Shown here: positions 1-38,802 of the stretch, in pieces
Numbering within the stretch: position 1 is the stretch's first letter
How the letters are laid out: the number at the start of each line of letters is the position of its first letter
Assembly (NCBI GenBank): GCA_032718475.1
Contig: JAUCBJ010006877.1
Coordinates: 1-38,803 of the forward strand
Direction of reading: 5' to 3'
Length of the DNA stretch: 38,803 nucleotides
Origin: Nemertoderma westbladi
Taxonomy: Eukaryota > Animalia > Xenacoelomorpha
Made by a program: the position numbers and the translations under genes
The notes under the pieces: generated by a model
What the model saw: the letters and a program-made list of their open reading frames with translations, nothing else
Database searches by the model: none
Told to the model about the DNA's origin: nothing

Positions 1-3000
1 GGAAGGGTTTATGTGGAAGAACACCCGTGGTGGTGAACAGGCATTCCTTTAGGAAACAACGTAGAAGGGATTACTGTGCAAGATCACCCATGGTGGCGAA
101 CAGGCATTCCTTTAGGAAACAAAGTTGAAGGGTTTACTGTGGAAGATCACCCATGGTGGTGAACAGGCATTCCTTTAGGAAACAGAGTGGAAGGGTTTAC
201 TGTGGACGATCACCCATGGTGGTGAACAGGCATTCCTTTAGGAAACAAAGTAGAAGGGTTTACTGTGCAAGATCACCCATGGTGGTGAACAGGCATTCCT
301 TTAGGAACCAGAGTGGAAGGGTTTACTGTGGAAGATCACCCATGGTGGTGAACAGGCATTCCTTTAGGAAACAAAGTTGAAGGGTTTACTGTGGAAGATC
401 ATCCATGGTGGTGAACAGGCATTCCTTTAGGAACCAGAGTGGAAGGGTTTACTGTGGAAGATCACCCATGGTGGTGAACAGGCATTCCTTTAGGAAACAA
501 AGTTGAAGGGTTTACTGTGGAAGATCACCCATGGTGGTGAACAGGCATTCCTTTAAGGGTTTACTGTGCAAGATCACCCATGGTGGTGAACAGGCATTCC
601 TTTAGGAACCAGAGTGGAAGGGTTTACTGGGGAAGATCATCCAAGGTGGTGAACAGGCATTCCTTTAGGAAACAGTGCGGAAGGGTTTACTGTGGAAGAT
701 CACCCGTGGTGGCTAGCAGGCATTCCTTTAGGAAACAGAGTGGAAGGGTTTACTGTGGAAGATCACCCATGGTGGTGAACAGGCATTCCTTTAGGAAACA
801 AAGTAGAAGGGTTTACTGGGGAAGATCATCCAAGGTGGTGAACAGGCATTCCTTTAGGAAACAGTGCGGAAGGGTTTACTGTGGAAGATCACCCGTGGTG
901 GAGAGCAGGCATTCCTTTAGGAAACAGAGTGGAAGGGTTTACTGTGGAAGATCACCCATGGTGGTGAACAGGCATTCCTTTAGGAAACAAAGTATAAGGG
1001 TATACTGGGGAAGATCATCCAAGGTGATGAACAGGCATTCCTTTAGTTAAACATAGTGGAAGGGTTTACTGTGGAAGATCACCCATGGTGGTGAACAGGC
1101 ATTCCTTTAGGAAACAAAGTGGAAGGGTTTACTGTGGAAGATCATCCATGGTGGTGAACAAGCATTCCTTTAGGAAACAGAGTGGAAGGGTTTAATATGG
1201 AAGATCGCCCATGGTGATCTAGTGGATTTCCTTTAGGAAACAGAGTGGAAGGGTTTACTGTGGAAGATCATCCATGGTGGTGAACAGGCATTCCTTTAGG
1301 AAACAAAGTAGAAGGGTTTACTGTGGAAAATCATCCATGGTGGTGAACAGGCATTCCTTTAGGAAACAGAGTGGAAGGGTTTACTGTGGAAGATATACCC
1401 ATGATGGTGGTGAACAGGCATTTCTTTAGGAAACCGAGTGGAAGGGTTTACAGTGGAAGATCACCCATGGTGGTGAACAGGCATTCCTTTAGAAAACAGA
1501 GTGGAAGGGTTTAATGTGGAAGATCACCCATGGTGGTGAACAGGCATTCCTTTAGGAAACAGAGTGGAAGGGTTTACTGTGGAAGATCATCCATGGTGGT
1601 GAACAGGCATTCCTTTAGGAAACACAGTGGGAGGGTTTACTGTGGAAGATCACCCATGGTGGTGAACAAGCATTCCTTTAGGAAACAGAGTGGAAGGGTT
1701 TAATGTGGAAGATCACCCATGGTGGTGAACAGGCATTCCTTTAGGAAACAGAGTGGAAGGGTTTACCGTGGAAGATCACTCATTGTGATCTACTGGCTTT
1801 CCTTTAGGTAACAGAGTGGAAGGGTTTACTGTGGAAGATCGCCCATGGTTATCTACTGGCTTTCCTTTAGGAAACAGAGTGGAAGGGTTTAATGTGGAAG
1901 ATCACCCATGGTGATCTACTGGATTTCCTTTAGGAAACAGAGTGGAAGGGTTTACCGTGGAAGATCACCAATGGTGATCTACTGGCTTTCCTTTAGGTAA
2001 CAGAGTGGAAGGGTATACTGTGGAAGATCACCCATGGTGGTGAACAGGCATTCCTTTAGGAAACAGAGTGGGAGGGTTTCCTGTGGAAGATCACCCATGG
2101 TGGTGAACAAGCATTCCTTTAGGAAACAGAGTGGAAGGGTTTAATGTGGAAGATCACCCATGGTGATCTACTGGATTTCCTTTAGGAAACAGAGTGGAAG
2201 GATTTACCGTGGAAGATCACCCATGGTTATCTACTGGCTTTCCTTTAGGTAACAGAGTGGAAGGGTATACTGTGGAAGATCACCCATGGTGGTGAACAGG
2301 CATTCCTTTAGGAAACAGAGTGGAAGGGTTTACTGTGGAAGATCATCCATGGTGGTGAACAGGCATTCCTTTAGGAAACAGAGTGGGAGGGTTTACTGTG
2401 GAAGATCACCCATGGTGGTGAACAAGCATTCCTTTAGGAAACAGAGTGGAAGGGTTTAATGTGGAAGATCGCCCATGGTGGTGAACAGGCATTCCTTTAG
2501 GAAACAGAGTGGAAGGGTTTACTGTGGAAGATATACCCATGATGGTGGTGAACAGGCATTCCTTTAGGAAACAGAGTGGAAGGGTTTACTGTGGAAGATC
2601 ATCCATGGTGATCTACTGGATTTCCTTTAGGAAACAGAGTGGAAGGGTTTACCGTGGAAGATCACTCATTGTGATCTACTGGCTTTCCTTTGGGAAACAG
2701 AGTGGAAGGGTTTACTGTGGAAGATCGCCCATGGTCTACTGGCATTCCTTTGGGAAACAAAGTGGAAGGGTTAACTGTGGAAGATCACCCTTGGTGATGA
2801 ACAGGCATACCTTTAGGAAACAGAGTGGAAGAGGTTTACTGTGAAAGATCACCCATGGTGATCTACTGGATTTCCTTTAGGAAACAGAGTGGAAGGGTTT
2901 ACCGTGGAAGATCACTCATTGTGATCTACTGGCTTTCCTTTGGGAAACAGAGTGGAAGGGTTTACTGTGGAAGATCGCCCATGGTCTACTGGCATTCCTT

Positions 3001-5555
3001 TGGGAAACAAAGTGGAAGGGTTAACTGTGGAAGATCACCCTTGGTGATGAACAGGCATACCTTTAGGAAACAGAGTGGAAGAGGTTTACTGTGAAAGATC
3101 ACCCATGGTGATCTACTGGATTTCCTTTAGGAAACAGAGTGGAAGAGTTAACTGTGGAAGATCGCCCATGGTGGTGAACAGGCATTCCTTTAGGAAACAG
3201 AGTGGAAGGCTTTACTGTGGAAGATCACCCATGGTGGTGAACAAGCATTCCTTTAGGAAACAGAGTGGAAGGGTTTATGTGGAAGAACACCCATGGTGGT
3301 GAACAAGCATTCCTTTAGGAAACAGAGTGGAAGGGTTTACTGTGGAAGATATACCCATGATGGTGGTGAACAGGCATTTCTTTAGGAAACCGAGTGGAAT
3401 GGTTTACAGTGGAAGATCACCCATGGTGGTGAACAGGCATTCCTTTAGAAAACAGAGTGGAAGGGTTTACTGTGGAAGATCATCCATGGTGGTGAACAGG
3501 CATTCCTTTAGGAAACACAGTGGGAGGGTTTACTGTGGAAGATCACCCATGGTGGTGAACAAGCATTCCTTTAGGAAACAGAGTGGAAGGGTTTAATGTG
3601 GAAGATCACTCATTGTGATCTACTGGCTTTCCTTTAGGTAACAAAGTGGAAGGGTTTACTGTGGAAGATCGCCCATGGTTATCTACTGGCTTTCCTTTAG
3701 GAAACAGAGTGGAAGGGTTTAATGTGGAAGATCACCCATGGTGATCTACTGGATTTCCTTTAGGAAACAGAGTGGAAGGGTTTACCGTGGAAGATCACTC
3801 ATGGTGATCTACTGGCTTTCATTTAGGTAACAGAGTGGAAGGGTATACTGTGGAAGATCACCCATGGTGGTGAACAGGCATTCCTTTAGGAAACAGAGTG
3901 GGAGGGTTTACTGTGGAAGATCACCCATGGTGGTGAACAAGCATTCCTTTAGGAAACAGAGTGGAAGGGTTTAATGTGGAAGATCACCCATGGTGATCTA
4001 CTGGATTTCCTTTAGGAAACAGAGTGGAAGGATTTACCGTGGAAGATCACCCATGGTTATCTACTGGCTTTCCTTTAGGTAACAGAGTGGAAGGGTATAC
4101 TGTGGAAGATCACCCATGGTGGTGAACAGGCATTCCTTTAGGAAACAGAGTGGAAGGGTTTACTGTGGAAGATCATCCATGGTGGTGAACAGGCATTCCT
4201 TTAGGAAACAGAGTGGGAGGGTTTACTGTGGAAGATCACCCATGGTGGTGAACAAGCATTCCTTTAGGAAACAGAGTGGAAGGGTTTAATGTGGAAGATC
4301 ACCCATGGTGATCTACTGGATTTCCTTTAGGAAACAGAGTGGAAGGGTTTACCGTGGAAGATCACTCATTGTGATCTACTGGCTTTCCTTTGGGAAACAG
4401 AGTGGAAGGGTTTACTGTGGAAGATCGCCCATGGTCTACTGGCATTCCTTTGGGAAACAAAGTGGAAGGGTTAATTGTGGAAGATCACCCTTGGTGATGA
4501 ACAGGCATACCTTTAGGAAACAGAGTGGAAGAGGTTTACTGTGAAAGATCACCCATGGTGATCTACTGGATTTCCTTTAGGAAACAGAGTGGAAGAGTTA
4601 ACTGTGGAAGATCGCCCATGGTGGTGAACAGGCATTCCTTTAGGAAACAGAGTGGAAGGCTTTACTGTGGAAGATCACCCATGGTGGTGAACAAGCATTC
4701 CTTTAGGAAACAGAGTGGAAGGGTTTATGTGGAAGAACACCCATGGTGGTGAACAAGCATTCCTTTAGGAAACAGAGTGGAAGGGTTTACCGTGGAAGAT
4801 CACTCATGGTGATCTACTGGCTTTCCTTTAGGTAACAGAGTGGAACGGTTTACCGTGGAAGATCACTCATGGTGATCTACTGGATTTCCTTTAGGAAACA
4901 GAGTGGAAGGGTTTACTGTGGAATATCACTCATCGTGATCTACTGGCTTTCCTTTAGGTAACATAGTGGAAGGGTTTACTGTGGAAGATCGCCCATGGTT
5001 ATCTACTGGCTTTCCTTTAGGAAACAGAGTGGAGGGTTTACTGTGGAAGATCACCCATGGTGATGAACAGGCATTCCTTTAGGAAACAGAGTGGAAGGGT
5101 TTACTGTGGAAGATCAACCATGGTGATCTACTGGCTTTCCTTTAGAAAACAGAGTGGAAGGGTTTACCGTGGAAGATCACTCATGGTGATCTACTGGCTT
5201 TCCTTTAGGTAACAGAGTGGAAGGGTTTACTGTGGAAGATCGCCCATGGTTATCTACTGACATTCCTTTAGGAAACAAAATGGAAGGGTTAACTGTGGAA
5301 GATCATCCATGGTGATGAACAGGCATACCTTTAGGAAACAGAGTGGAAGGGTTAACTGTGGAAGATCACCCATGGTCTACTGGCTTTCCTTTAGGTAACA
5401 GAGTGGAAGGGTTTACTGTGGAAGATCATTCATGGTGATCTACTGGCTTTCCTTTAGGAAACATAGTGGAAGGATTTACTGTGGAAGATCACCCATGGTG
5501 GTGAACAGAGTGGAAGGGTTAACTGTGGAAGATCGCCCATGGTGGTGAACAGGCA
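1..5555. repeat. Satellite/minisatellite array, 63-bp unit (about 88 copies, truncated at window start)
   Basis: Consensus GGAAGGGTTTACTGTGGAAGATCACCCATGGTGGTGAACAGGCATTCCTTTAGGAAACAGAGT repeated head to tail. Variant units of 60, 64 and 67 bp occur. The array ends abruptly at ...GAACAGGCA (5555) before AT-rich DNA. Confidence 0.98.
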
Positions 5556-10322: not shown

Positions 10323-13190
10323 TTATTTTACGTAATTTAAGTTCAACATTTCACGAATACGCGAAACGCCATGTTGGCGACAGATAACAGACACACCCCG
10401 TAGGATGCTATTGTCAATGTTGTCAACCCTGTTGAACAAACTCGTAATCGATTTATAACGTAAGTGAATGAATAAAGGTATATTCAGTAGACCAAATGTC
10501 AGAGAAATACTAGTGGATTCTCCATCAGTTATACGGGGTATTTTAAATAGAAATCTAGCACAATTATTGTATGCTACTCGTAGTTTATTATGTGCACTGT
10601 CAGAATAGCTGCGCTTTGCCCAGAGCGAGTTGCAATATATGGGGGTGCAATAGGCTCGGAATAAAGCAAGCTTAACTGGTCGGCTGCAATTGCCAAACTT
10701 GCGTAGCAACATATTACCACGTGCGTATAAGCTATTAGTCTGCTTACGGATATCAAAATCGTCATCTAACGTACAATGTATTAAATGTCCTAAGTAGTTA
10801 AATTTATCAACAATATCAAGTTTCACATCATAAAGAAATACTGCGGACTTAGCGCTGCAGCTTATATCTCTTGGTAAAAAATACATACATTTAGATTTCT
10901 TCTTATTGAAAGTCATAGAGTTATTAGAGGCGTAACTAACAGCAACATCTATTAACTTTTGTAACCCGTAAATTGAGTTTGACAGCAAACAGATATCATC
11001 AGCATAACCCAAGTGATTTACCCTGATATTACCCATATAACATCCAACCCCGCTTAATGTTAATTGAATGCTTAAATCATCTAAATAAACATTGAAAAAC
11101 AGGGGAGACAGAATGCCACCCTGTTTTGTACCATTAGTCACCGTAAATTTCGGTGAGACTATACCCGCCCAAACAACACACATCAACTGCGACCTATACC
11201 AATAAATAATCAGACGCACAATATATAGGGGAATATTTCGATCAATAAGTTTGCGAAAAAGTACAAAGTGGTTAACTTTGTCAAAAGCTTTGCTGGCGTC
11301 TAGCATACACACATAAACGGGTGTGTTCTTACTTAAATAATAATTGAGAATCTCTTTTAGGGCATATACGCAGGTTTCAGTGCCAAGCTTCGACTTGAAG
11401 CCAAACTGGTTATCGGTAGTGTACAGAAGGGAAAGACACCTATGTAAGATAACATTTTCTAAAATTTTACTGAGCACTGTAGCAATTGAAATACCTCTAT
11501 AATTATCCTTAGACGTGTGGTCATCATTCTTATCCTTAATTAACGGAATTATAATAGATTCCATCATACCAATCGGCATGTAACCGTGGACAAAAATACC
11601 AGTAAAAATAATAGATAGAATATTTAACAAAGAAACACAACAGCCATTTATAAAGTGTTCCGCCAGAAGGCCATCTGGGCCGACGGCCTTGCCACGAGAC
11701 AGATTATTAATCGCCATAAATGTTTCAACAGGAGATACAATATTATCAGCACCAAAAACGGTTTCCTTCAAACGACTGTGTACAAACTCTCGACTGGAGT
11801 CGTCTTTTACACTATTTAGTAGATCATCAAAATGTGATTTCCACATATCGCAGATTTCCCCTGGCCCATTTGCATCACCTACCCTGCTAGGGAGTGGAGC
11901 AAAATCGCACGCTTGTTTATGAACCCCAGACCAAAATTCATTACTGCTAGTGCCTTTAATAAGGGCATTTGCGAGTTTTTCCTCTCGAAATTTTTGTTCA
12001 TTACGTTTACATTCCCGAAGAGAACGTTTAAATTGTGCTTTGCTGCACAGGTATTTCCTATGAATTTCACCATCCCTTGGAGATCCAATAGACCGCCAAG
12101 TTTTAAGCCATTTTCTGGACTCCTCGTATTTATCTTTTACAATATCATTCCAGCCAGGAATGTGGGGGGCAGTGTTACTTTTAGTTTTCCGTGGACTAAT
12201 AGTAGCATTACCACATGTTAGCAAAATATGCACCAGGTTATTATACAATTCATCTATATACTTCTTATGAGTTTCACAGTTTGTATCATTGCACACAATA
12301 AATGACTCATCAATTGGAAAAAATTCTAAAAGTTGACGAGCCTTAATGAGATAGTTATTAATTTGCAAAGGTGTGGCGTGTTCCCAATCCAGAGTATTAC
12401 ACGATTTATGTTGCTGAGCAGGAGTGCCGCCAGCACTTTGTCCATTAACTGTGCCACATATAGACACACTGATAGGAATATGGTCCCTAACACTAATATC
12501 GTAGTTCACATTGATGTTTTTTATCAGCTCAATAGCAGATTGGGAACATACAACATGATCCAACCACGATGTTGACGAATGTGCGTCACTCACGTAAGTA
12601 AACGTATTGGCTGGCAATAACACTGTATCAATGATAGACAGATTTAACTCACTGCACCATTCAGATAGATAATTATAGAATAATCTGCCTGGGTTGGCGT
12701 TAAAATCACCGAAAATCAACAAATGAGAATGAGGTACAGATTCATAAATGGCCTTTAGGCTCCCAAGACAATTACTATAAAGGTCATCATTATCAGGGCA
12801 TTCATATGGCATATAAACATTAAGAATTAATAAAATATCATTATTATTCAACTTAACAGTTATCCCAAAAACCCTATCATTACCTGTTTTAATTATAGCG
12901 GTAGAGTGCGCTATGGATTTTTTCCAAAGTATACCGATACCCCCAAAGGGCCTGCCAACTAATATCTGACTAGATAGATCAACGGGTGACGTACCAAAAG
13001 CATTGTAATTAGGGTGTATATTAGACAAAAATGACAACTCCTGCTTAGGGAGCATTAGTTCTTGCAGTAATAACAAGTCACACCCATTATTACAAGCATC
13101 ATTAATTACATGTAGTGAGTGCAAATTTCTAACAGACCCACAGTTATACGAAACAAAACTTAGGTTGAGGTTAAAGCTTTCATCCGCCAT
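10323..13190 (-). CDS. LINE ORF2: AP-endonuclease plus reverse transcriptase, 955 aa, uninterrupted
   Basis: EN motifs SYNC, LLQE, GGIGI, NVYMP, GDFNA, WLDHV and DH. RT motifs YRGIS, NQFGF, DASKAFD, GTKQGGILSPLFF, YADD and YLG. Confidence 0.96.
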   Translation of the reverse strand: MADESFNLNLSFVSYNCGSVRNLHSLHVINDACNNGCDLLLLQELMLPKQELSFLSNIHPNYNAFGTSPVDLSSQILVGRPFGGIGILWKKSIAHSTAIIKTGNDRVFGITVKLNNNDILLILNVYMPYECPDNDDLYSNCLGSLKAIYESVPHSHLLIFGDFNANPGRLFYNYLSEWCSELNLSIIDTVLLPANTFTYVSDAHSSTSWLDHVVCSQSAIELIKNINVNYDISVRDHIPISVSICGTVNGQSAGGTPAQQHKSCNTLDWEHATPLQINNYLIKARQLLEFFPIDESFIVCNDTNCETHKKYIDELYNNLVHILLTCGNATISPRKTKSNTAPHIPGWNDIVKDKYEESRKWLKTWRSIGSPRDGEIHRKYLCSKAQFKRSLRECKRNEQKFREEKLANALIKGTSSNEFWSGVHKQACDFAPLPSRVGDANGPGEICDMWKSHFDDLLNSVKDDSSREFVHSRLKETVFGADNIVSPVETFMAINNLSRGKAVGPDGLLAEHFINGCCVSLLNILSIIFTGIFVHGYMPIGMMESIIIPLIKDKNDDHTSKDNYRGISIATVLSKILENVILHRCLSLLYTTDNQFGFKSKLGTETCVYALKEILNYYLSKNTPVYVCMLDASKAFDKVNHFVLFRKLIDRNIPLYIVRLIIYWYRSQLMCVVWAGIVSPKFTVTNGTKQGGILSPLFFNVYLDDLSIQLTLSGVGCYMGNIRVNHLGYADDICLLSNSIYGLQKLIDVAVSYASNNSMTFNKKKSKCMYFLPRDISCSAKSAVFLYDVKLDIVDKFNYLGHLIHCTLDDDFDIRKQTNSLYARGNMLLRKFGNCSRPVKLALFRAYCTPIYCNSLWAKRSYSDSAHNKLRVAYNNCARFLFKIPRITDGESTSISLTFGLLNIPLFIHLRYKSITSLFNRVDNIDNSILRGVSVICRQHGVSRIREMLNLNYVK

Positions 13191-13310
13191 TGTTAAGGTT
13201 GGAAAGTTTCAGAATAAGACATTGATTAAAGAAAGAAATATAAACATTTTATAAAAAAAAAATATATATATTTATACATAAAATAATACAAATGATACAA
13301 AAATTATAGT

Positions 13311-15978: not shown

Positions 15979-16591
15979 TTTGATTTAATCACAATTTAAA
16001 AAAAAATATAATTTATCCAGCGTTAGACATCAGCTTTGCAGGTTGCAGCCCTGTTTAAACAGTTATTACTGCCTGACTTTTGCTGTATTGCAATATATTA
16101 CAGTATTCAGTTACCGGTATTAGTGCTTCTTTATTAATTTTACTGAATTAGGCCTAACAGAAGTAATTAAAATGACAAGTTCCAGTGCAATCTTCAATGA
16201 TTCTGAAGAAAAACGTATGGTTGACAGGTTCAGAGATGTTACTTTTAGAGAGGGTCGTGATTCTGTGGCATAATCAAACTGAACTCAAACCAAAACAGCC
16301 CTTTTAAGGGCCAGCATCCTTTGCCACTATCGAGGAGCTCCCTGTGCTGCAAAGGGGAAACATGGCTGTAAAGCTGATGACTAACGCTGGATAAATTATA
16401 TTTTTTTAATTGTGATTAAATCAAAAATATTGAAAAATAAGATTGTTTTAAAGAATAGCCTATACAATTTTTATACTTTGCATGCAAGCTCAGAATTAAA
16501 TTCTCATTCAAATGGTATATTACACTAAGGTTTATGTATGGCAGTTTTGGCTGGCCAGGGGGGGTGGGGGCAATCATTTTGGAACACCCGG
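15979..16591 (+). mobile_element. Internally deleted Tc1/mariner-type DNA transposon lacking its outer left TIR
   Basis: Inverted repeat 15979-16037 / 16370-16425. The right end is GGAACACCCGG|TA. An internal short ORF at 16172 (MTSSSAIFNDSEEKRMVDRFRDVTFREGRD) resembles a transposase N-terminus as I recall it. Confidence 0.65.
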
Positions 16592-17385: not shown

Positions 17386-18520
17386 GTCAAGTTATATTTT
17401 ATTTACATAATATATATTTATAATAAGCAGAAAAATTTTTTTTTTACCAAATTTGTTAGATTTACAGTTGATTGAAGTTCTAACTTGTACAAACAGTACC
17501 TTTCTTTCATCATCTGTTTTGAAAGAAGAGCTCTGAAAAAGGTCTTCGAGTTTAATAGCTTATTATTATATAATAAATAAAATAGAACTATATTATAATA
17601 ACTAATAGTTTATTCAGCGGTATATGGGCCATGCTATTTTGTAGCACCCCCCCCCCCCCCCCCCCCCCCCCGATCATAATATTTTATTTAGAAAGAAAAC
17701 GTATTTTCACGACCATTCTCAGAATGGTTACACAGAATTCAAAATTATATTTCTAGAAAAAAAAACATGTAATTTTGCACAGCATCGTGGTGTTCGTAAC
17801 ACATTTGATCATTTCGATGTTACGATCTGTACATACTGTGATAAGAAAGTTAGAAATGCATGTGCCTGCATTGTGAGGATCAGCACCCAAACAAGCAATA
17901 GCTGCGCTTGTTTATATATGGTCGAAAATTTCCACCCAATTTTTTAAGGTGGAGCAACACTATTGGGTACATAGAACACAATCAGAACAACCTTAGGGAA
18001 TTTCTTAGCCAGTTGTCCAGAATATGAGAAGTGGCAACGGATGATGCTACGGTTGGAGATATGTGCCATTTTATCTGAATGTGCAGTTCAGTATGTTCAG
18101 TATGTGTTTCAAATTTCAAACAATATGATTAAGATTTGTAGAAAAAATCTGGGGGAGGGGGGGGGGGGTGGCGTGTCATCAGAAAATGACACTATATTAC
18201 GGGACATGGTGTTTAATGTACTATTTCATGACAGTGATTGCAAAAAAGATGTATCTTTTCTACTTTTCAAAATTGTTTACAATAATAAAGTTGAATATTT
18301 ATTATTTCACTTAAAACCCCCGAAAAGAGCTGAGTCATATGTAACCTGAGTTCCAATCTCGAGCTTTTCTTCATGTCTCGATATTTTTTAATATAACATG
18401 GGAGTGCATGTGTGGGATAAGTGATAGTAAGTATGTGCAAGTTAACTAAAGGATCAGCTTTACATGGTTTATCAATTAAATAACTAACAATTTAAATCGG
18501 ATATTTTAATATTATTTCAG

Positions 18521-18727: not shown

Positions 18728-18781
<54 letters not shown>
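18728..18781. repeat. Poly-G homopolymer (54 nt)
   Basis: Directly visible. Shorter G/C tracts occur at 17647-17671 and near 18900-18950, 22490-22509 and 23605-23618. Confidence 0.9.
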
Positions 18782-18850: not shown

Positions 18851-19942
18851 TTAACCGCCCTAATACTCCCGGGCTATAAAATGTTGTACAAAAAACGGGG
18901 GGGGGGGGGTGTCATATTGACCCCCCCTCCCCCCCCCCCCCCCCCCTCCCCCCTCTAAAATCTACAAATTTTTACGAAAACGTCTGATTTTTTGTTTGTA
19001 CGTAGGTATCACTAGATCTGAATCCGACCGAAAAAAAATTTCGAAAAAATGTACTGGGATGGTGGTTATATTGCAGAACCAAAATTACAAGTAGTGCACA
19101 GTTTTCACAAAATTTGAAAGTTACATTTTTCGGCTAATTGTTTTTCAATACAGGTTTTCTGGGGCGCAAAATACATTGGAAAATATTTAAAAATGATATG
19201 ATTGCTATAAATAGCTGTTTAGTCCTCTCTGCGTAGGAAAAAAATGAAAAAAACAAGTAACTAGCACTTTTCAGTTAGAACACAAAATTTTTGATTCACT
19301 TATACGATGCTATAAATTCACATTTTCAGGATTTCGAGGGCGCTGTTTCTAATGGAATACATTTCTAATATGCCAGATCATTGCTACTTTTATTTTTTGG
19401 CGTAATTTGGAAAATTTTGGTGCAAACACCAAATTTCGTACCCATCACCAAAAAGTACAAGTTTGCGATGTCCATTGCTGTTTTTATTGATTCCATCGGA
19501 TTCAGGACCCTCATAAACTCGTATAACGCAAGAAACAAGATAATACTATTATCTACTGATCAATTTTCTTATTTTCCAAAATTTGGTGCTGGAACAACAA
19601 TTTTCACCCACCGGCGAAAAATACAAGTTTGAAAACTCCTATGAAATTTTTACTGATTCCATTGAATTTAGAACCCTCACAAACCCGAATAACGCAAGAA
19701 ACAAGGTGACACAATCAATTGATATATTTGATGGTTTTCTAAATTTGGTGCTAGCACCACATTTTGCACCCACTTCTGAAAAATACAAGTTTGAGATGTC
19801 TAGTTCTATAATTATATATTTCATTGAATTCAGAACAGCCATAAACCTCTACAATGCAAGAAATAAATTGTCACAAGCAATTTTATCTATTGAATGTAAT
19901 TTTCAAAAAACGTCTCAAAAAATGTGCCAAAAGTAGGGTTAA
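18851..19942. mobile_element. TTAA-flanked (piggyBac-like) non-autonomous element with about 165-bp internal repeats
   Basis: Starts TTAACC and ends AGGGTTAA. It has a subterminal G-tract-TCATATTGA-C-tract, three tandem repeats at about 19411, 19579 and 19741, and inverted partial copies near 19150 and 19330. Confidence 0.55.
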
Positions 19943-22340: not shown

Positions 22341-22518
22341 TATAAACTATAAACTACCCAATATTTTTAAAACGGTTTTCACTACTAGGAAGACAATAGA
22401 TTTTTAGGAAAAGTCATACAATTTCAGATTCCCAACTGCGTTTTTTTTCAGAATTATAATAAAAACACCACGGGGGGGTGATATTGAACCCCCCCCCCCC
22501 CCCCCCCCCGTCTATTAA

Positions 22519-26187: not shown

Positions 26188-26825
26188 CTGCATTAATATT
26201 ATGCTCATTAGAACCGCAATGGCCGATTTAGTGGGGGTAGACAACTTCAAAACAAACGCAGAGCGAATAGTTCTTGAGATATCGCAGAAAATGTGAAGTC
26301 CGGCACAAGTCTACACTACCGCCTTGATGCAATATGGAAAAATCCTCAAAAAATTTTATTTTGAATTATCTCAAGGAACCAAGAATAGACACATCACAGA
26401 AGTGATCGATGTAGTGGGTATAGATAGACACCTTTAAAATAAGAGTAGAGTCATTAGTTCTTGAGTTATTTTACAAAATGTCAAGACTATATCCACCAAT
26501 TAATACTTGATATTGAGTTGACCCATTCAACACATTTTGTACAAAAACTATAGTGAATTAATGACTACTCTTTCATTATGAAGGTGTCTGTATACACTAA
26601 ATCAATTTGTTGCAGTGATGTGTCTATTCTTGATTCTTTGAGATAATTCAAAATAAAATTTTTTGAGGATTTTGCCATATTGCATCAAAGCGGTAGTGTA
26701 GACTTGTGCCGGACTTCACAATTTCTGCAATATCTCAAGAACTATTCGCCCTATGTTTGTTTTGAAGTTGGTCTACCCCCACTAAATCGGCCATTGCGGT
26801 TCTAATGAGCATAATATTAATGCAG
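26188..26825. mobile_element. Foldback/MITE with about 295-bp terminal inverted repeats
   Basis: CTGCATTAATATTATGCTCATTAGAACCGCAATGGCCGATTTAGTGGGGGTAGAC... matches the reverse complement of the right end. The arms run to about 26482 and 26533, with a spacer of about 50 bp. Confidence 0.92.
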
Positions 26826-28221
26826 TAGGAGAACTCAAAGTTGGCCATCGCGAAAATTTAGAAATATCATCACTTTGCGCCAAATGGTAGGTTCTGTCCA
26901 TGTGCCTGTGGCACTACTTCCCTTGATCCAAAAATTAAAATTTTTGGTTCTAACTAAGTTTGGACCCAATTGATGACATTTGATGCAAGCAGGAAGTTCT
27001 TTCTTGAGTCATTGATCTTTCATCAATGTGTTATATTGTTATAAATTTCATTATGGTGCATCGTGGCGGCACAAAATTTCAACCCTCTTGGGATCCGTGA
27101 AGATATAGACGAAATTTAATGAAATTTTTTTGCCTTACTTTTTTACCATTTGGCAACTTTTGTGCACCGGTAGAACAATGAAATCGAAAAAAAGTAAAAA
27201 ACGCACCACCCTACAGTACAGTAGGTCATGCAATATTAATCAAGGAATTCATAATTATTATGTAGGCTATACTGTATTAAAACCGAACCACTACAGGCGC
27301 CAACAATAAGCCTTCTGATTTTATATCTAATCCAAGAAATTAAAACCAAAACTAAAGTGGTGGGAATTAAAAAACCACAGGGTAACCATGAATGACAACA
27401 AAACAAAAGTAATTAGTCATGCCCAATCATTTAGTCATAAACATATTACAGTACAAAGTTGAAATTTTTCGCCAATCAGTTCAAGCATATCATTGTTAAA
27501 ATCTATCTTACCATTTCCTCTCTTTATAGCTGCTCGTGATAACAATAATGGAATATCGCAATCTACAATATTAACAAATAAATATAAGCGTTTATTACCA
27601 AGTTGTATTGGTAATATTGCCTTCTTGCTGGACAAATGCCGATTTCCATCACCGAAATGAAACCAAACATTACTCTTTTCCCAGTAAATATCTCTTTGAT
27701 CACTACAACTCAGGGAATCAATGTAACATTCCAACCAAACCTTCCCAGCAACGGTAGTGACACAACCGGTGTCAAGAGCAGCATAATTTAATGTTTCTGA
27801 CAATGACTGATCTTCTGTAACAATATCAACATCCGTATAAAGATTTATATGAACATCTTCCATTTCTGTATATAGCTGTAAATTATCAGCAGCTTGTTTT
27901 TATTGACAATCAGATTCATAATATATCGACAAACAAACTCCACAATGTGTTGGTCGTCCATATTGATCAGATGGATTCAATCGCGATGTAGCGTCGGTCC
28001 CACCCCCCCCCCCCCCCCGGTTGAACTCGAGAGTAATGAGACCGGGTTGATTCATCTGATTGAAATTACCACCTTGTCTTCTAAAACCTCCTCCATAATT
28101 CCGAAATCCTTGGCGTCCAGTTCTTAAATTTCCTCGGTTATGATTAAATCAACGATGTCGAAATCTTCCTCGACTGAAATAACCATAGTAACATTCATTA
28201 TCCTCCACATATCCATCATTG

Positions 28222-28479
28222 TGAATAAGACAATATGATAATCATGATAATCATCAATATGATAACGAACTTGTACTTTCCTTTACTTTCCTTTGAGTGA
28301 GTAGTTGGCCTTAATATGATCTCCCACTCCACAGCGAAATATTCATCCGGTCTGGTAGCTCAGTACACTCACCCGGCTGATGATAACCAGAAGTTTGAAA
28401 CCTAGGTACCGGGTTCGAGCCCCAATAGGGCCGGTTGATATTTTTCGCTATGGAGAGCATTATCATATTGTCTTATTCA
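28222..28479 (+). mobile_element. 258-bp inverted-repeat-bounded element carrying a tRNA-like unit with an embedded hammerhead ribozyme
   Basis: Perfect 21-bp IR TGAATAAGACAATATGATAAT (28222-28242 / 28459-28479). An inner imperfect IR spans about 28327-28350 / 28431-28455. A-box-like TAGCTCAGT, B-box GGTTCGAGCCC, and T5 at 28441. Confidence 0.8.
28371..28414 (+). ncRNA. Minimal type-I hammerhead ribozyme
   Basis: Stem I ACCCGG/CCGGGT; core CTGATGA; stem II (T)AAC-CAGAA-GTT(T); core GAAA; stem III C-CTAG-G with a palindromic loop; cleavage triplet GTA (predicted cut after 28408). Confidence 0.82.
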
Positions 28480-28993
28480 ATTCTAGTGGGTTTGGTTTTA
28501 ATCTTTATCTCGGTTTCTTTAGTACTAGACGTATACCGCCGTCAATTATTTGGTAACTGAGGTCGTTATGGACATTTTACTAATAGAGACAAATGTTGCA
28601 CATATGGAATTATATGCCTCGTTTTAAAATTAATAAAAAACTTATTAATTATATATTATTTTTAAAATCAATGTAGTTTCCAATAATGGAGCTTGAACAA
28701 CTGAATCATATTTTGGCCTCATACAGTTACTCAAAGGAAAGTACAGCGTTATTCCCGTGCTCTGCTCATTATCCCTCTGGTAACTCTGTTGTCTTAAGAC
28801 ATGGTTTTTTAAGGGGATTAGGCTACCTACAAATAGCTATTTATTTCAAAATATAATAAAATGATTTATTTTTTCTCCCTTCAGCAAAGCCATTATATCA
28901 GACCATGGCCCCCAAATGTTTCAGCTGTGATTTTCCATAATATAATTTTTCAATATTTACTTTCATGAAAACTGTTAAAGCTGTCTATTGCAG

Positions 28994-30899: not shown

Positions 30900-32021
30900 T
30901 ACGAATACCACCTCAAGCACCCTGCTACGCAGTCGAACGATAAATTCTCCAGTGTGATGTTCGACGGCCTATTCAGAGTGGGAGGTAGACTCACAAACGC
31001 TCCCCTTTCCCGCGACACGATATTTCCCATTATTATCTACGATCCCGCCATACAATGAAAGATAATACTGGATGTACACAATCAGTTGTTGCACGCTGGG
31101 AGGGAACACATACTTAGTGAAGTACGCACTAGGTATTACTTTGTAAAACCCAGGAAAGCCTTAAATAAAGTTCTGCGCAGCTGTTTACCCTGTAAGAATC
31201 TGTATTGCCAACCCATGACTCAGTTAGAAGCACCCTTACCTAAGGAACTCGTTAGCTGCTACGAGCCTCCCTTTACACATACGGGTGTAGACTTATTTGG
31301 GCCGATAGAGGTCAAGAGGGCTCGAACCATGGTTAAAAGATGGTGCGTTATCTTCATCTGCATGACATGCCGCGCAGTACATCTGGACATGGTTAACGAC
31401 ATCCCCATGAATAGCTTTATCCTGTGCTTACATAGACAAATCAGTAGATACGGCACCAGCAATACAATGAAGTCAGATAAAGGGACTAACTTTATAGGGG
31501 CAAACAACGAGATAGCACGCTCTATAGACAAAGCGCCAGAGGCACTCACATGAGCCCACTTTCTGATGAAAAAGAAAGTAGTGTTGTTACCAGTCTCGAC
31601 ACCCGAGTACGGTGACGAGCTATTGCGACAAACCTGGAAGATGACTCAACTGATTCCAAGCCGATTCGCAAACTACTTTGAGCGATTTTATCTTCCCAGC
31701 ATACAACTCAGGAACAAATGGTTTTCCGTGAAAGAAAACGCCAGGGTAGGAGACATGGTATTAGTAGTGGATCCTGATCTCCCGCAGAAATATTGGCAGA
31801 CAGCGTGCATAATAGAAACACACGTCAGCGTGGATAGCCTGGTAAGATCAGTGGATCTAGTAGTTCTGAGGGAAAAGGGCAAGCTAAACTTCGTTCCCCA
31901 GAGACTCAACAGTCCTATAGGCCGCCTCTGCCTGCTTGAAATGGCACGCAAAGAATCTGGCAACTACGGCAAGCAAGAAGTCAAGCCAACAGATTTGAGA
32001 TATTTTTATTGGATTAGTTAA
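30900..32021 (+). mobile_element. BEL/Pao pol 3' remnant (integrase Zn finger, partial DDE core, C-terminal domain)
   Basis: RVGGRL, H...HAG...C..C, PPFTHTGVDLFGP, RAVHLD, SDKGTNF.GA, PEALT*AHFL, YLP.IQ.R.KW, GDMVLV, D.LVRSV and RLCLLE. It has premature stops, and the segment holding the catalytic E is deleted. A possible 3' LTR starts at TGTTG (32078). Confidence 0.9.
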
Positions 32022-34998: not shown

Positions 34999-36198
34999 GT
35001 TTATGCGATTATTCGCAACATTCATGTCCCCAAGTTTATTCCTACAGTAATTGTGCTTGTTATACATACCGTTATAGTTAAACTAACCCCGGTACTACAT
35101 CAGGGCTGCTCGGCGTAGGTAAAGACTGGAGATTTTGTGCTTCGGTCACTCCAGCAGATGCCGTGGTTCTTTTAACTGTTCAAGTTTATTTAACTACTGA
35201 TTATTTGTTATACCGGTACTTGTACCTAATTTAGGGTTTAGTGTACAGTGCTTTCCGAAGTAATTAGTGTGTAGGCAGTATAATTGTGTTGTAAAGTGGT
35301 TGATAGGCACATTCGTTAGCTCTATTAACTTCTAGGTAGGAACAATCCGTGATACATAATGTAGTACCTATAGCGATACGGTTATAGGTCGTCAGGCGGT
35401 GGTATTTTCCTATCTGGACAACGCAGTATATTTACTACTACTTATTATTTAAATACCGTAGTACCCTGTCCGTTGTAATAACCAGAAATCTAACCCTTTG
35501 TTAGGCTGGTTTGTAGACTTCCTGTAAAATTACCCTAAAAATCTCGTACGTAATATTTTCGTTGTGTTTTAATTAGAGAATTAATCTCACCCATATCGTA
35601 AGTAATTTGTAGTATTAAGTAACTTAGTTAAATTAGAATTATCAGTTTTAGTGTCTCAATAAGTAACACTTCACTGAGAGCGCACAGCTTTTGTGTAGTG
35701 ATTCCCCCAGAAATAATAACATTTATTTCAAATATTGACAAAAACCCTTTAAACGGGTATATATCTATTATAAATCAACTCAAACGATTTATAAATAGTA
35801 GGCCTGCCAGACAATAACTAGGTCTCACTATCAGTTGGACTACTGCTTAAATAACGGTAATAAAGTAAGTTAAAGTAACCAAGTAACCCTAAAATATTCA
35901 GAAATTCAATTATTCTAAAAAAAAAATAATTGACATACCGGTACTTACCATAGGCTTATTATATATATTTATATATATTTGTGCTAAAATTATATACCGG
36001 TACTCTGTGACAAATCTAGTCTGTAATAATACTTATATATATACTATAAGCATACCGGTATTCTAATATATTATATATATATCACGCTACACTGAGTAGC
36101 AGTATCGGTAATTAATTGTTAGGCTAACGGTGATACTGAATTACTAGACTTACTTTGACTGTATTTATAGCCGTAGGCATTCAACTGTGTAAACAAAC

Positions 36199-38802
36199 AT
36201 GTCAGACGCAACCCAATCACTGTCAGATAGTGTCTTAGAAAGTGTTAGAATGAGTATTAGACTTAGACAGCGTATTAAAAGGATCTGTGACCAAGATCAA
36301 AGTATAGAACATCCCAGATCCAAGTCTAAGTCACCTACTATTGAAAGAAAGGCCACCCCTACAGTAGTAGTGTCAGACCCTAGGCTAGTAGAACAGCGTA
36401 GGTCTATCATCGGCACTTGCGCCCAAGTCAAGCGGGATCAAGAAGCAGCTGTCAAACCGCAGCAACATCCTAGCCAAGAACCTAGTTCTCAGCGTCCCGA
36501 TAGCTCCAGTAGTTCGGATACTGCTGAGCGGACACCCGAACGCGGAGCGAAGATGGCGGATACGGTTTATGATGAGCGGCCAACCTATGAAGAATCAGCC
36601 GACGCCACTTCTTCTCAAGTGGAAAGCGAAGTGGAAAGCGAATTAACGGCCGCAGAGAAGCTGCGAACTAGAGACGCCATTGACATATATCTGTCAGACT
36701 ATCAGCGATTCATAGGAGACGAAGAGTTGAGGAGACGACTGTCTGGACTTCGCCCTAATAGTGAAGGAACCAAGCTTGTGTTGGACGCAATCGATGCGGA
36801 AATGTTAGCTGCAGAACAAGCTAAATGTGATGAAAAACTCCGCCTCGTTAGAGTCCAAGAAGAACAAATAAAGAAAAAACAGATAGAGAACCGAAAGGCA
36901 GCAGCAGTAAAGGCGGCAGAAGCAGAAGCAGCAAAGGCGGCGGCAGAAGTAGAAGCAGAAAGAAAGGCAGCGGATGTAGAAGCAAAAGGAAAGGCAGCGG
37001 TAGCAGAAGCAGAACGGAGAGCGTCTGAGGAGACTGCCCAACTGGAGTTGGAAAATCTGCAAGAGACGCAAGACTACGTAAATAAACATCTAACTGCTAG
37101 TCGAATGCAGAGGATGAGACGATCTACTCCAAAACGCCAAGGATACACATCATCGGAGGAAAGCGAAACCACCGATCCTGAAAGCGGAGGAAATAGATCT
37201 CGTCTAAGCAGGCGTAGAAAAACATCTCACCGTCATAAACTGCCTGATTTGCCCCCAGCTGTCAGAAGACAACTAGCTAGCACAGACTTAGGTAGTACAG
37301 AACCTACAGCCCAAAGTATTAAGGTTCAAAGACTCCCTACAATAGTTGATGAGCCTGAGATAATTAGGCCTGTCGTTCCCAAAATCACTTCTGTGTTAGA
37401 GACCCCTGTACTTCCAGAGCTTAACTCTAAATTCCCTTTACATAGTACTACACTGCCTGTACCCGGTGGAGCAGTCCAAGAGAATATCCCTGTCCAGATA
37501 GCAGAGAGAGAAATCAAAAATTTGTCTCCCGTCGTCCCGCGTCAGCCCGCTACTATGTTGGCGACTCCCGCTTCGGCGGTTGAGTGGGTGGAAGAGGGAC
37601 GGCGGGGGATGAATCTCCTGCTAGGACAGATGCAGGAGACTGTCCACCAACTTAAGGGAACAGTGAGGGAAGGTAGAGCAGAGTTGCAAGAAGTGCAGCA
37701 AAGTATCGCGCTAGAACGCGACAAATTAGTCAATATACAAAAGGGCATACCAATACCCCCTGTAACATTGTGTCAACCTGTTAGGTCTGAAGTATTACAT
37801 GCGCAAGGTGTGGAGCCTACACGCATCTATACTGCTAGTGAAGTTGAAACTCCTATAGCAAACCCTATTAAGGGTGATTATAGACCTGTTATTAATGATA
37901 TTCCCTATAGACCTGATAATGATCCGAGAAATTTATATACCGATAATTCGATATTAAATAACACGATGGCCCAAGAAAGCTTCACGCGTCAGATGGCTAG
38001 AACAGAAGCCCGCCAAGCGGTCAAAGTGGGAGAGATCGTCAAATTCAATGGAGATGAGATGAAATGGTTACCTTTCAACGAATATTACAAAGATAGCATA
38101 CAGAACTCTGTACTATCTAATGGAGAGAAACTTAGATTCCTCATCAAGTGCTTGGAAGGACCTCCCAAGTTAATGGCGTTAAAGTTTATTGGACATCCAG
38201 ATGGATTAAGACAAGTTTGGGATACACTAAACATCAGGTATGGTAACAAGGATAACATAGCTAAGTATTTGTATGCAAAATTAGTAGCCCCCCGACACTT
38301 CCTTAGTAGCGGAATTATAGAGTTTTCCGATGAAATTCAAGAGATCTGTAGACAACTGGACTGGTTAGGTAAGTCGCATGAATATCAGAGTTCCATGGTT
38401 ATTGGAGCCGTAGTCTCTACTTTACCAAAGGGTGGAGTATGTACACGCTGGGACAAGAAAGTGTTGTACATGAATGAACAACAACGACGAAGTCCTACCA
38501 TGGCTGATCTCATGTCTTTCTTAGATAGTGAAGTAAAATTACAACTCATAAGGCAGTCCAGAGAGAAAACATCGGAAAATAAGGTAAGTGAGAAACCCGT
38601 TTCTAGGAGAAGGATAATACCAGTGTGTTATACTGACGACGGCGAAAGCCAAGCTTCTCAAGAAGAGGACAGCGGGAAAGACACAGCAAAATCTTACTAT
38701 GACAACAAGACCTATAAAGACGTAAGTAAATACAAGTCTCGAACCAGTGACAGGAGAGAACAGGTAACAACAACTCCTCCTACGTCTCCTAAGAGAATTC
38801 AC
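36199..38802 (+). CDS. BEL/Pao LTR retrotransposon gag(-pol) ORF, partial (at least 868 aa, runs off the window)
   Basis: ATG at 36199 and no stop to the window end (read codon by codon). From 38041 the BEL gag core reads KFNGDEMKWLPF...LSNGEKLRFL...LEG...WDTL..RYG...LP......W...PTMADLMSFL. Absent from the ORF track. Confidence 0.88.
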   Translation, partial: MSDATQSLSDSVLESVRMSIRLRQRIKRICDQDQSIEHPRSKSKSPTIERKATPTVVVSDPRLVEQRRSIIGTCAQVKRDQEAAVKPQQHPSQEPSSQRPDSSSSSDTAERTPERGAKMADTVYDERPTYEESADATSSQVESEVESELTAAEKLRTRDAIDIYLSDYQRFIGDEELRRRLSGLRPNSEGTKLVLDAIDAEMLAAEQAKCDEKLRLVRVQEEQIKKKQIENRKAAAVKAAEAEAAKAAAEVEAERKAADVEAKGKAAVAEAERRASEETAQLELENLQETQDYVNKHLTASRMQRMRRSTPKRQGYTSSEESETTDPESGGNRSRLSRRRKTSHRHKLPDLPPAVRRQLASTDLGSTEPTAQSIKVQRLPTIVDEPEIIRPVVPKITSVLETPVLPELNSKFPLHSTTLPVPGGAVQENIPVQIAEREIKNLSPVVPRQPATMLATPASAVEWVEEGRRGMNLLLGQMQETVHQLKGTVREGRAELQEVQQSIALERDKLVNIQKGIPIPPVTLCQPVRSEVLHAQGVEPTRIYTASEVETPIANPIKGDYRPVINDIPYRPDNDPRNLYTDNSILNNTMAQESFTRQMARTEARQAVKVGEIVKFNGDEMKWLPFNEYYKDSIQNSVLSNGEKLRFLIKCLEGPPKLMALKFIGHPDGLRQVWDTLNIRYGNKDNIAKYLYAKLVAPRHFLSSGIIEFSDEIQEICRQLDWLGKSHEYQSSMVIGAVVSTLPKGGVCTRWDKKVLYMNEQQRRSPTMADLMSFLDSEVKLQLIRQSREKTSENKVSEKPVSRRRIIPVCYTDDGESQASQEEDSGKDTAKSYYDNKTYKDVSKYKSRTSDRREQVTTTPPTSPKRIH

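Follow-up and report, generated by a model that had tools for sequence, protein, structure and literature searches.

The window considered here is the whole 38,803-nucleotide stretch of contig JAUCBJ010006877.1 from Nemertoderma westbladi (assembly GCA_032718475.1), which consists of repeat-rich animal DNA with exon-like pieces of an SDF-family transporter and a fibrinogen-C domain. A descriptor scan of the whole window returned only one site that matches a type I hammerhead ribozyme, at 28377. The A box, hammerhead, B box and T5 run that the initial annotation had listed from the sequence alone all lie where it had placed them (Table 1), and the A- and B-box pair at the hammerhead is the sole such pair in the window.

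Table 1. Features of the hammerhead-bearing repeat and its surroundings, in window coordinates
Feature	Position	Strand	Basis or remark
Host region: decayed, multi-copy, gag/protease-like; likely LTR retrotransposon	27435-28221	-	DTG motif and Cys cluster
Inverted 21-nt copy of the element 3' end	28222-28242	-	21/21 identity to 28459-28479; at the 5' junction
Short duplicated filler	28243-28281		After the inverted 21-nt piece
Forward repeat copy, 5'-truncated	28282-28479	+	Contig depth; family unit continues further upstream
Outer stem enclosing the tRNA-like unit (predicted)	28327-28339/28443-28455	+	13 positions; z about -3.3, 0/200 shuffles
tRNA-derived unit, positions 1-73 in register	28349-28433	+	Register table and alignments to natural tRNAs
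Acceptor stem	28349-28355/28426-28432	+	tRNA register
A-box-like motif	28356-28364	+	tRNA positions 8-16; G18-G19 missing
Shortened D loop and 3' D strand, 6 nt left	28365-28370	+	tRNA register
Minimal type I hammerhead	28371-28414	+	Descriptor and Rfam HH9 alignment; flanked by A- and B-box-like motifs
Stem I	28371-28376/28409-28414	+	6 Watson-Crick pairs
Former anticodon arm (27-43)	28372-28391	+	Triplet 34-36 doubled at 28379-28384
Anticodon stem 5' strand (27-31)	28372-28376	+	Same as stem I 5' strand
Positions 32-36	28377-28381	+	With the second triplet copy (doubled GAT) form the CUGAUGA core; followed by 37-38
Hammerhead core	28377-28383 and 28397-28400	+	CUGAUGA and GAAA
Stem II	28384-28387/28393-28396	+	3 bp plus U.U at base
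Positions 39-43	28387-28391	+	Anticodon stem 3' strand
12-nt insert and variable loop	28392-28408	+	17 nt, versus 5 in a class I tRNA
Palindromic stem III	28400-28407	+	8-nt palindrome
Predicted cut	28408/28409, after A28408	+	Behind the UH cleavage triplet
T arm (49-65)	28409-28425	+	17 nt; 5' strand doubles as stem I 3' strand
B box	28412-28422	+	Within the T arm
T5 run	28441-28445	+	8 nt behind position 73; candidate Pol III terminator inside the mobile unit
Second, inverted family fragment (upstream part)	28705-28765	-	Matches 28281-28320 at 79% over 42 nt; three runs, depth 5.8e3-1.6e4

The motif carries CUGANGA, GAAA and UH around three stems, as expected of type I hammerheads (Rfam clan CL00010), with stem II being weak. 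When the same descriptor was applied to 1000 dinucleotide shuffles of positions 5601-38803, any hammerhead site occurred in 11 and a stem I of at least 6 bp in one, whereas none combined a stem I of at least 6 bp with a palindromic loop and none had A and B boxes on either side, and a chance artefact is rejected on this basis. Comparison with hammerhead and tRNA models, which the initial annotation had proposed, gave a mixed outcome. Rfam reported neither a hammerhead nor a tRNA at E<=1 on the whole window; on 28300-28500, Hammerhead_HH9 aligned to 28371-28415 with every core letter matched, at a score (19.7 bits, E 0.012) far short of the gathering threshold, which is 52. The stem III palindrome of 8 nt has a computed self-duplex energy of -11.4 kcal/mol, and a dimer design that works through a palindromic stem III has been described for animal hammerheads (PMC4209133). 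Judged by these sequence criteria, the motif is a real and complete minimal type I hammerhead of the dimer type, with predicted cleavage.

Several other repeats share the window. A 63-bp satellite (1-5508; about 87 copies at about 88% identity) runs off the window start and contains no hammerhead by descriptor. On the minus strand, a LINE at 10323-13208 has an uninterrupted 961-codon frame with AP endonuclease and RT domains and looks young. Two MITE-like elements are present, one at 26188-26825 with terminal inverted repeats of 55 nt at 100% plus 156 nt at 94%, and the other at 16000-16407 with 42-nt arms at 95%. Remains of BEL/Pao-type gag (DUF1759) and integrase lie on the plus strand at 36193-38802 and 31059-32021. 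Long G and C homopolymer tracts (17647-17671, 18728-18781, 18921-18953 and 22472-22509), some of them in inverted pairs, gave rise to spurious Rfam miRNA matches.

A dispersed mobile repeat and its insertion site

Four DNA runs that carry the same organism label and come from three samples, possibly including the source of the window, were aligned to 28100-28850, and 701, 1300, 889 and 82 contigs were placed from them. In the flanks the summed contig depth is 0-235; inside the repeat it climbs to 1e4-4e5, reaching 1.2e5-3.9e5 over 28386-28463 in three runs and 8e3-2.3e4 in the fourth. Single listed contigs mostly have depths of 8-70, and the summed depth is not a copy number, meaning only that there are very many copies. 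Depth declines toward the 5' side yet stays high to 28282, which is 67 nt upstream of the tRNA-like start. The repeated unit is thus at least 28282-28479 by contig depth, longer than the 28345-28445 proposed by the initial annotation. The opposite end is ragged: many contigs end at 28467-28479 and then enter unrelated AT-rich DNA, and the consensuses of the loose ends behind these positions are AT-rich, agree poorly and lack poly(A). As read from the contigs, this is a dispersed, very high-copy non-coding repeat with a unit of more than 200 nt.

The copy in the window was inserted into another repeat. A host contig (depth 128-235 in three runs) links 28222 to 28487 and represents the empty site. 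The host ORF matched no Pfam family or homologue, and the Atlas gave only unnamed eukaryotic clusters for it. Immediately after the right junction stands ATT at 28480-28482, a motif cut in vitro by the anole Penelope endonuclease (PMC11167929); this is a single, weak instance. An imperfect 46-nt AT-rich palindrome (28622-28667) lies between the two fragments of the family.

Only a single direct copy of the repeat is present at the locus, and neither a second direct copy, as the two direct LTRs of a Helenus-type TRIM would require, nor the family's upstream continuation was found elsewhere in the window. The 15 joints listed from a total of 23 include six strand-switches inside the forward copy and two equivalent ones; no head-to-tail joint occurs among these 15, the far end of the unit lying outside the window. 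Two inverted joints begin at 28408 and 28410, adjoining the predicted cut, which we offer as a post-hoc hint only.

These features agree with two classes of mobile elements. Like non-autonomous Penelope-like elements, the repeat is 5'-truncated, carries an inverted piece and varies in its 3' ends; 5'-truncated pieces in inverted orientation, together with 3' extensions that vary, are described as typical of Penelope-like elements (PMC8557442). Like non-LTR retrozymes, it is a non-coding, high-copy repeat with a type I hammerhead. A tRNA-derived SINE fits in part. The A and B boxes do lie in a tRNA-derived region, with an A box that lacks G18-G19, but the element does not start at the tRNA 5' end, given that repeat depth reaches at least 67 nt upstream of position 1. 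Moreover, this insertion has neither an A-rich or simple-repeat tail nor a target-site duplication.

A tRNA register beneath the ribozyme

The unit was numbered as a tRNA with position 1 at 28349 and position 26 at 28371, and the segment lengths from 26 to 73 fit a class I tRNA plus two insertions. The scaffold described by the initial annotation is therefore upheld as a tRNA-derived unit in register, although its T stem forms only three of five pairs, C28409.A28425 and C28410.A28424 being mismatched. A functional tRNA gene is ruled out by the lost D arm, a 10-nt anticodon loop and this broken T stem, and ARAGORN made no tRNA call on the window. The short D region is a trait of the family, since 7 of 16 spanning pieces among those listed are gap-free across 28356-28371. 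Many contigs cease to match upstream of 28365, with loose ends there from 17, 15 and 2 contigs at agreements of 0.42-0.55, and these ends may hint at a subfamily with a longer D region.

The hammerhead and the tRNA use the same letters. The former anticodon arm supplies the 5' strand of stem I, the CUGAUGA core and the 5' strand of stem II. In the best register, the insert occupies 28392-28403 and variable-loop positions 44-48 fall at 28404-28408; an alternative register puts the insert at 28397-28408. Among 473 natural (viral) tRNAs, 84 have the letters of 28404-28407 at positions 44-47, the commonest variable loop opens with them, and 230 have G46-U47. Because these letters fit natural variable loops, the cleavage triplet would map to tRNA positions 46-48, with the predicted cut between positions 48 and 49. 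The palindrome of stem III looks like an inverted copy of the variable loop, which we take as a suggestion about how it arose. In a giant-virus tRNA-Asn with an identical 61-65 strand, positions 49-50 pair with 64-65, whereas in the repeat they pair with stem I.

The likeness to an anticodon arm was assessed in several ways. A pattern taken from 28374-28395, in which two letters had been loosened in the light of a known tRNA and which is thus not a blind test, fell on the anticodon arm of tRNA-Asn(GTT) in 98 and of tRNA-Ile(GAT) in 8 of 120 viral loci (the tally adds to 121, one locus having two matches). An unbiased set was therefore formed of 692-693 viral tRNAs, which are not host tRNAs, were not picked by their anticodon arm and exclude those matching the pattern. 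With only the core held fixed, the best match was reached by 6 of 300 shuffles for the window copy and by 1 of 300 for a copy carrying the allele at 28389 (see below). A stricter control held stem I and the core fixed and reshuffled stem II while keeping it paired. On this viral tRNA set, 10 of 1000 such controls equalled the best-match score of the window copy and 1 of 1000 that of the 28389 allele; the anticodon-stem pairs in exact register were equalled by 13 and 1 of 1000, respectively. The isotype depends on the comparison, with Arg(ACG) giving the best single unbiased arm, Ile(GAT) the best mean, and Met and Asn the best match over the whole unit. ARAGORN called the trimmed unit at an 85% threshold only, not at 90%; it likewise called 55 of 520 arbitrary two-cut products and is so non-specific here that it lends no support to a tRNA origin.

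We also considered whether a tRNA-derived head received a hammerhead that was already complete, taken from the pLTR of a Penelope element or from a different retrozyme, in which case the resemblance to an anticodon arm would be chance or later adjustment. Minimal hammerheads with a palindromic stem III are reported to be very common in animal genomes (PMC4209133), the best isotype differs by score, the first pattern was loosened in the light of a known tRNA, and the window copy alone reaches only about 1% significance. Nevertheless, one and the same stretch serves as the 3' strand of stem I and the 5' strand of the T stem, and the ribozyme is therefore no independent cassette; the anticodon-stem pairing falls in the exact tRNA register, as the control counts above indicate; and the letters before the T stem match the commonest natural variable loop. 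We consider such an import unlikely. Read in tRNA register, the anticodon arm is reused under the ribozyme and not replaced. The initial annotation had placed the hammerhead instead of this arm, a description we revise, as arm and variable loop persist beneath it. The ribozyme probably evolved out of the tRNA gene itself.

Alleles and predicted folding

Alleles were scored, unphased, as sites reaching at least 5% of depth in at least one of the four runs, and 15 such sites lie in 28282-28479. None falls in the 45 positions of the core, stems I and III and the boxes (hypergeometric P 0.018). Taken separately, neither the 30 core and stem I/III positions (P 0.077, not significant alone) nor the 18 box positions (P 0.23) carry any, and the T5 run is also free of alleles at this threshold.

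Four alleles add pairs. The allele at 28389 (51, 41, 46 and 26% of depth by run) completes four anticodon-stem pairs, that at 28332 (33-100% of depth) closes the single mismatch of the outer stem, and those at 28351 and 28426 each add an acceptor-stem pair. Another allele, at 28381, occupies the free N7 position of the core, and that at 28384 turns the U.U of stem II into A-U. A gap-free contig of depth 932 carries the changes at 28323, 28332, 28351, 28381 and 28384, as inferred from distances to the contig ends. The U.U pair that the initial annotation had singled out as a departure is thus present in the window copy and replaced by A-U in one deep contig, and it is not unprecedented, given that the axolotl hammerhead HHR_Amex2 is described with U.U at the base of helix II as well (PMC7229834). 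Two other alleles weaken pairing: 28431G (17-27%) breaks an acceptor pair, and the allele at 28369 (about 25% of depth in all four runs) breaks the CTC/GAG pairing by which stem I had been proposed to extend into the B box.

Under a fold model that has no tertiary terms, the 100-nt unit is no stabler than its shuffles (z -0.27), and the outer stem, whose 3' arm includes the T5 run, is the sole fold that exceeds them. For all allele sets tested, the hammerhead fold is 6.9-8.7 kcal/mol less favourable than the predicted ensemble, and dimers left to fold freely are not predicted to adopt the active structure. The T-arm fold lies 6.0-7.1 kcal/mol above the ensemble, with a T-arm pairing probability of at most 0.01. 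In nascent RNA that carries the 28389 allele, the predicted probability of the anticodon arm is 0.99 when transcription has reached 28415 and 0.83 at 28433. These predictions lend no support either to fast cleavage or to a two-state switch.

Such a switch had been put forward by the initial annotation; on this reading, a 100-nt Pol III RNA ending at T5 would alternate between tRNA-like and hammerhead folds, and its cut would serve regulation. The competition between stem I and the T stem on which the idea depends is real, both using 28409-28413, and the two folds also share 28372-28376. The anticodon arm predicted in the nascent RNA of the 28389 allele would block stem I, and the A box, the B box and T5 have no common alleles. 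Yet the predicted ground state is neither of these folds, two of the five T-stem pairs are already disrupted, the D arm is lost, the mobile unit runs both beyond T5 and upstream of position 1, and no trigger is apparent. A and B boxes act as DNA, and a cut in the RNA would therefore affect the promoter only after reverse transcription. We regard a regulatory switch as very improbable.

A different concern is that the locus is a plain repeat of tRNA origin, resembling a SINE or carried by a DNA transposon, whose hammerhead is dead or irrelevant to spread while selection acts on the outer stem. The fold predictions described above suit this explanation, as do the many copies that span the cut site and the finding that anole Penelope ribozyme mutants insert normally in vitro (PMC11167929). 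It does not account well for the lack of any allele of at least 5% in the core or stems I and III, for the fact that the two ribozyme alleles outside loop II sit at N7 or repair stem II, or for a depth that drops toward the 5' side and 3' ends that are ragged, unlike the fixed ends of DNA transposons. We judge this explanation to be quite unlikely, somewhat more so than import of a ready-made ribozyme.

Proposed origin and relation to known systems

The central proposal of the initial annotation, a minimal dimer-type hammerhead within a tRNA-derived, Pol III-type unit, is borne out at the sequence level and now extends to a mobile repeat. The reading we favour, and hold to be reasonably probable, is that of a retrozyme-type repeat whose ribozyme was built from a tRNA gene and which likely spreads through the enzymes of a Penelope-like retrotransposon. 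Its origin would have required three steps: doubling of triplet 34-36 to create CUGAUGA; insertion of 12 nt beside the variable loop to provide the 3' strand of stem II, GAAA and the palindrome; and alteration of T-stem positions 49-50 so that they pair with the old anticodon stem.

Propagation might then proceed as follows. A tandem master copy would attract Pol III through its A and B boxes, and transcripts reading through T5 would reach the next unit. Two ribozymes would pair via the 8-nt palindrome and cut slowly after A28408, releasing a permuted monomer, which would be circularised by RtcB, a step shown in other retrozymes (PMC7229834). On RNA that is uncut or has been re-ligated, a Penelope-type RT would start at 28467-28479, some 60-70 nt downstream of the cut; Penelope-like RT is described as starting internally, downstream of the hammerhead, on uncut RNA (PMC11167929). 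Since the cut lies between the boxes, the whole promoter would be kept only in cDNA that crosses the cut site. Because 67 nt or more of the unit precede tRNA position 1, and a transcript beginning there could not provide them, we infer that the template would have to be tandem, circular or read-through. The weak points of this mechanism are the conserved T5 within the unit, at which a Pol III transcript would stop 22-34 nt short of the mobile 3' ends, and the lack of a tandem joint among the 15 of 23 joints listed. Of nine predicted retrozyme dimers in a recent preprint, eight failed to cleave (10.64898/2026.07.22.740005).

It has long been asked whether genomic hammerheads go back to a single origin or emerged more than once. 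We advance more tentatively, as a possibility that falls somewhat short of the favoured reading in likelihood, that an active hammerhead arose anew in a eukaryotic tRNA gene through a doubled triplet, a 12-nt insertion with an end that mirrors the variable loop and two T-stem changes, with G46-U47 entering the cleavage triplet, and that the gene thereby became a Penelope-mobilised retrozyme whose promoter survives only via uncut or circularised RNA. If this is true, a ribozyme whose parts carry tRNA numbers would offer an example from nature in which the ancestor can be traced and the few mutations leading away from it can be reconstructed, and it would be a rare natural instance of a ribozyme arising anew. 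The retrozyme would have obtained both promoter and ribozyme from one host gene. A copy-control rule is also predicted, in that a linear cut-to-cut monomer would end up integrated with misordered promoter boxes.

Searches for the same layout returned no matches in prokaryote genomes or in viral contigs, where another pattern scan gave seven matches, none with stem pairing, and 13 matches in metagenome contigs, all without stem I, palindrome or tRNA and read as chance. These collections hold little animal DNA and are therefore uninformative on the range of the layout among animals. BLASTN with 28345-28440 found nothing in phages and, in plasmids, only fragments with E about 9. The initial annotation had known of no account of the nested arrangement, and we likewise found no description of a hammerhead overlapping a tRNA arm in a full-text literature search judged by titles, abstracts and selected passages, which covered few subscription papers and neither Repbase nor supplements. 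Elements that combine a promoter with a hammerhead are already known, and it is the in-register overlap of ribozyme and tRNA arms that appears to be new.

Four known systems resemble parts of the repeat. Helenus TRIMs with tRNA-like LTRs (PMC10886601) also have their Pol III promoter, derived from tRNA, within a longer mobile unit and not at its 5' end. Unlike Helenus, which that account presents without a ribozyme, the repeat has ragged ends and no second direct copy in the window. The pLTRs of Penelope-like elements, as described in PMC4209133, PMC8557442 and PMC11167929, are alike in their ribozyme of the dimer type, truncation at the 5' end, an inverted piece at the 5' junction, AT-rich flanks and 3' ends some tens of nucleotides downstream of the cut site. 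The repeat differs from them in having no linked RT or GIY-YIG ORF, a tRNA-derived body, and a stem II that is shorter than the 7-8 bp of their hammerheads and lacks G10.1-C11.1.

Animal non-LTR retrozymes (PMC7229834; 10.64898/2026.07.22.740005) share a type I hammerhead with a short palindromic helix III, the absence of an ORF, many monomer copies and a proposed dependence on Penelope. Their tandem arrays and circles are, for the present repeat, a proposal, and the portions of these two sources drawn on here describe no tRNA scaffold or Pol III boxes. The closest parallel in composition is found in Schistosoma's Sm-alpha and Sj-alpha repeats, which are likewise high-copy non-coding repeats that combine a type I hammerhead with a Pol III promoter derived from tRNA, and whose multimeric transcripts are cut to monomers (PMC6765202, PMC2770079 and PMC8490949). 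According to these reports, the tRNA-derived promoter of Sm-alpha comes first and the hammerhead follows; the legend to Fig. 6G of PMC6765202 likewise places it behind the promoter, and our comparison is by description only. In the Nemertoderma repeat, by contrast, the ribozyme lies between the boxes and shares its letters with the anticodon arm and T stem, and the predicted cut falls inside the promoter region.
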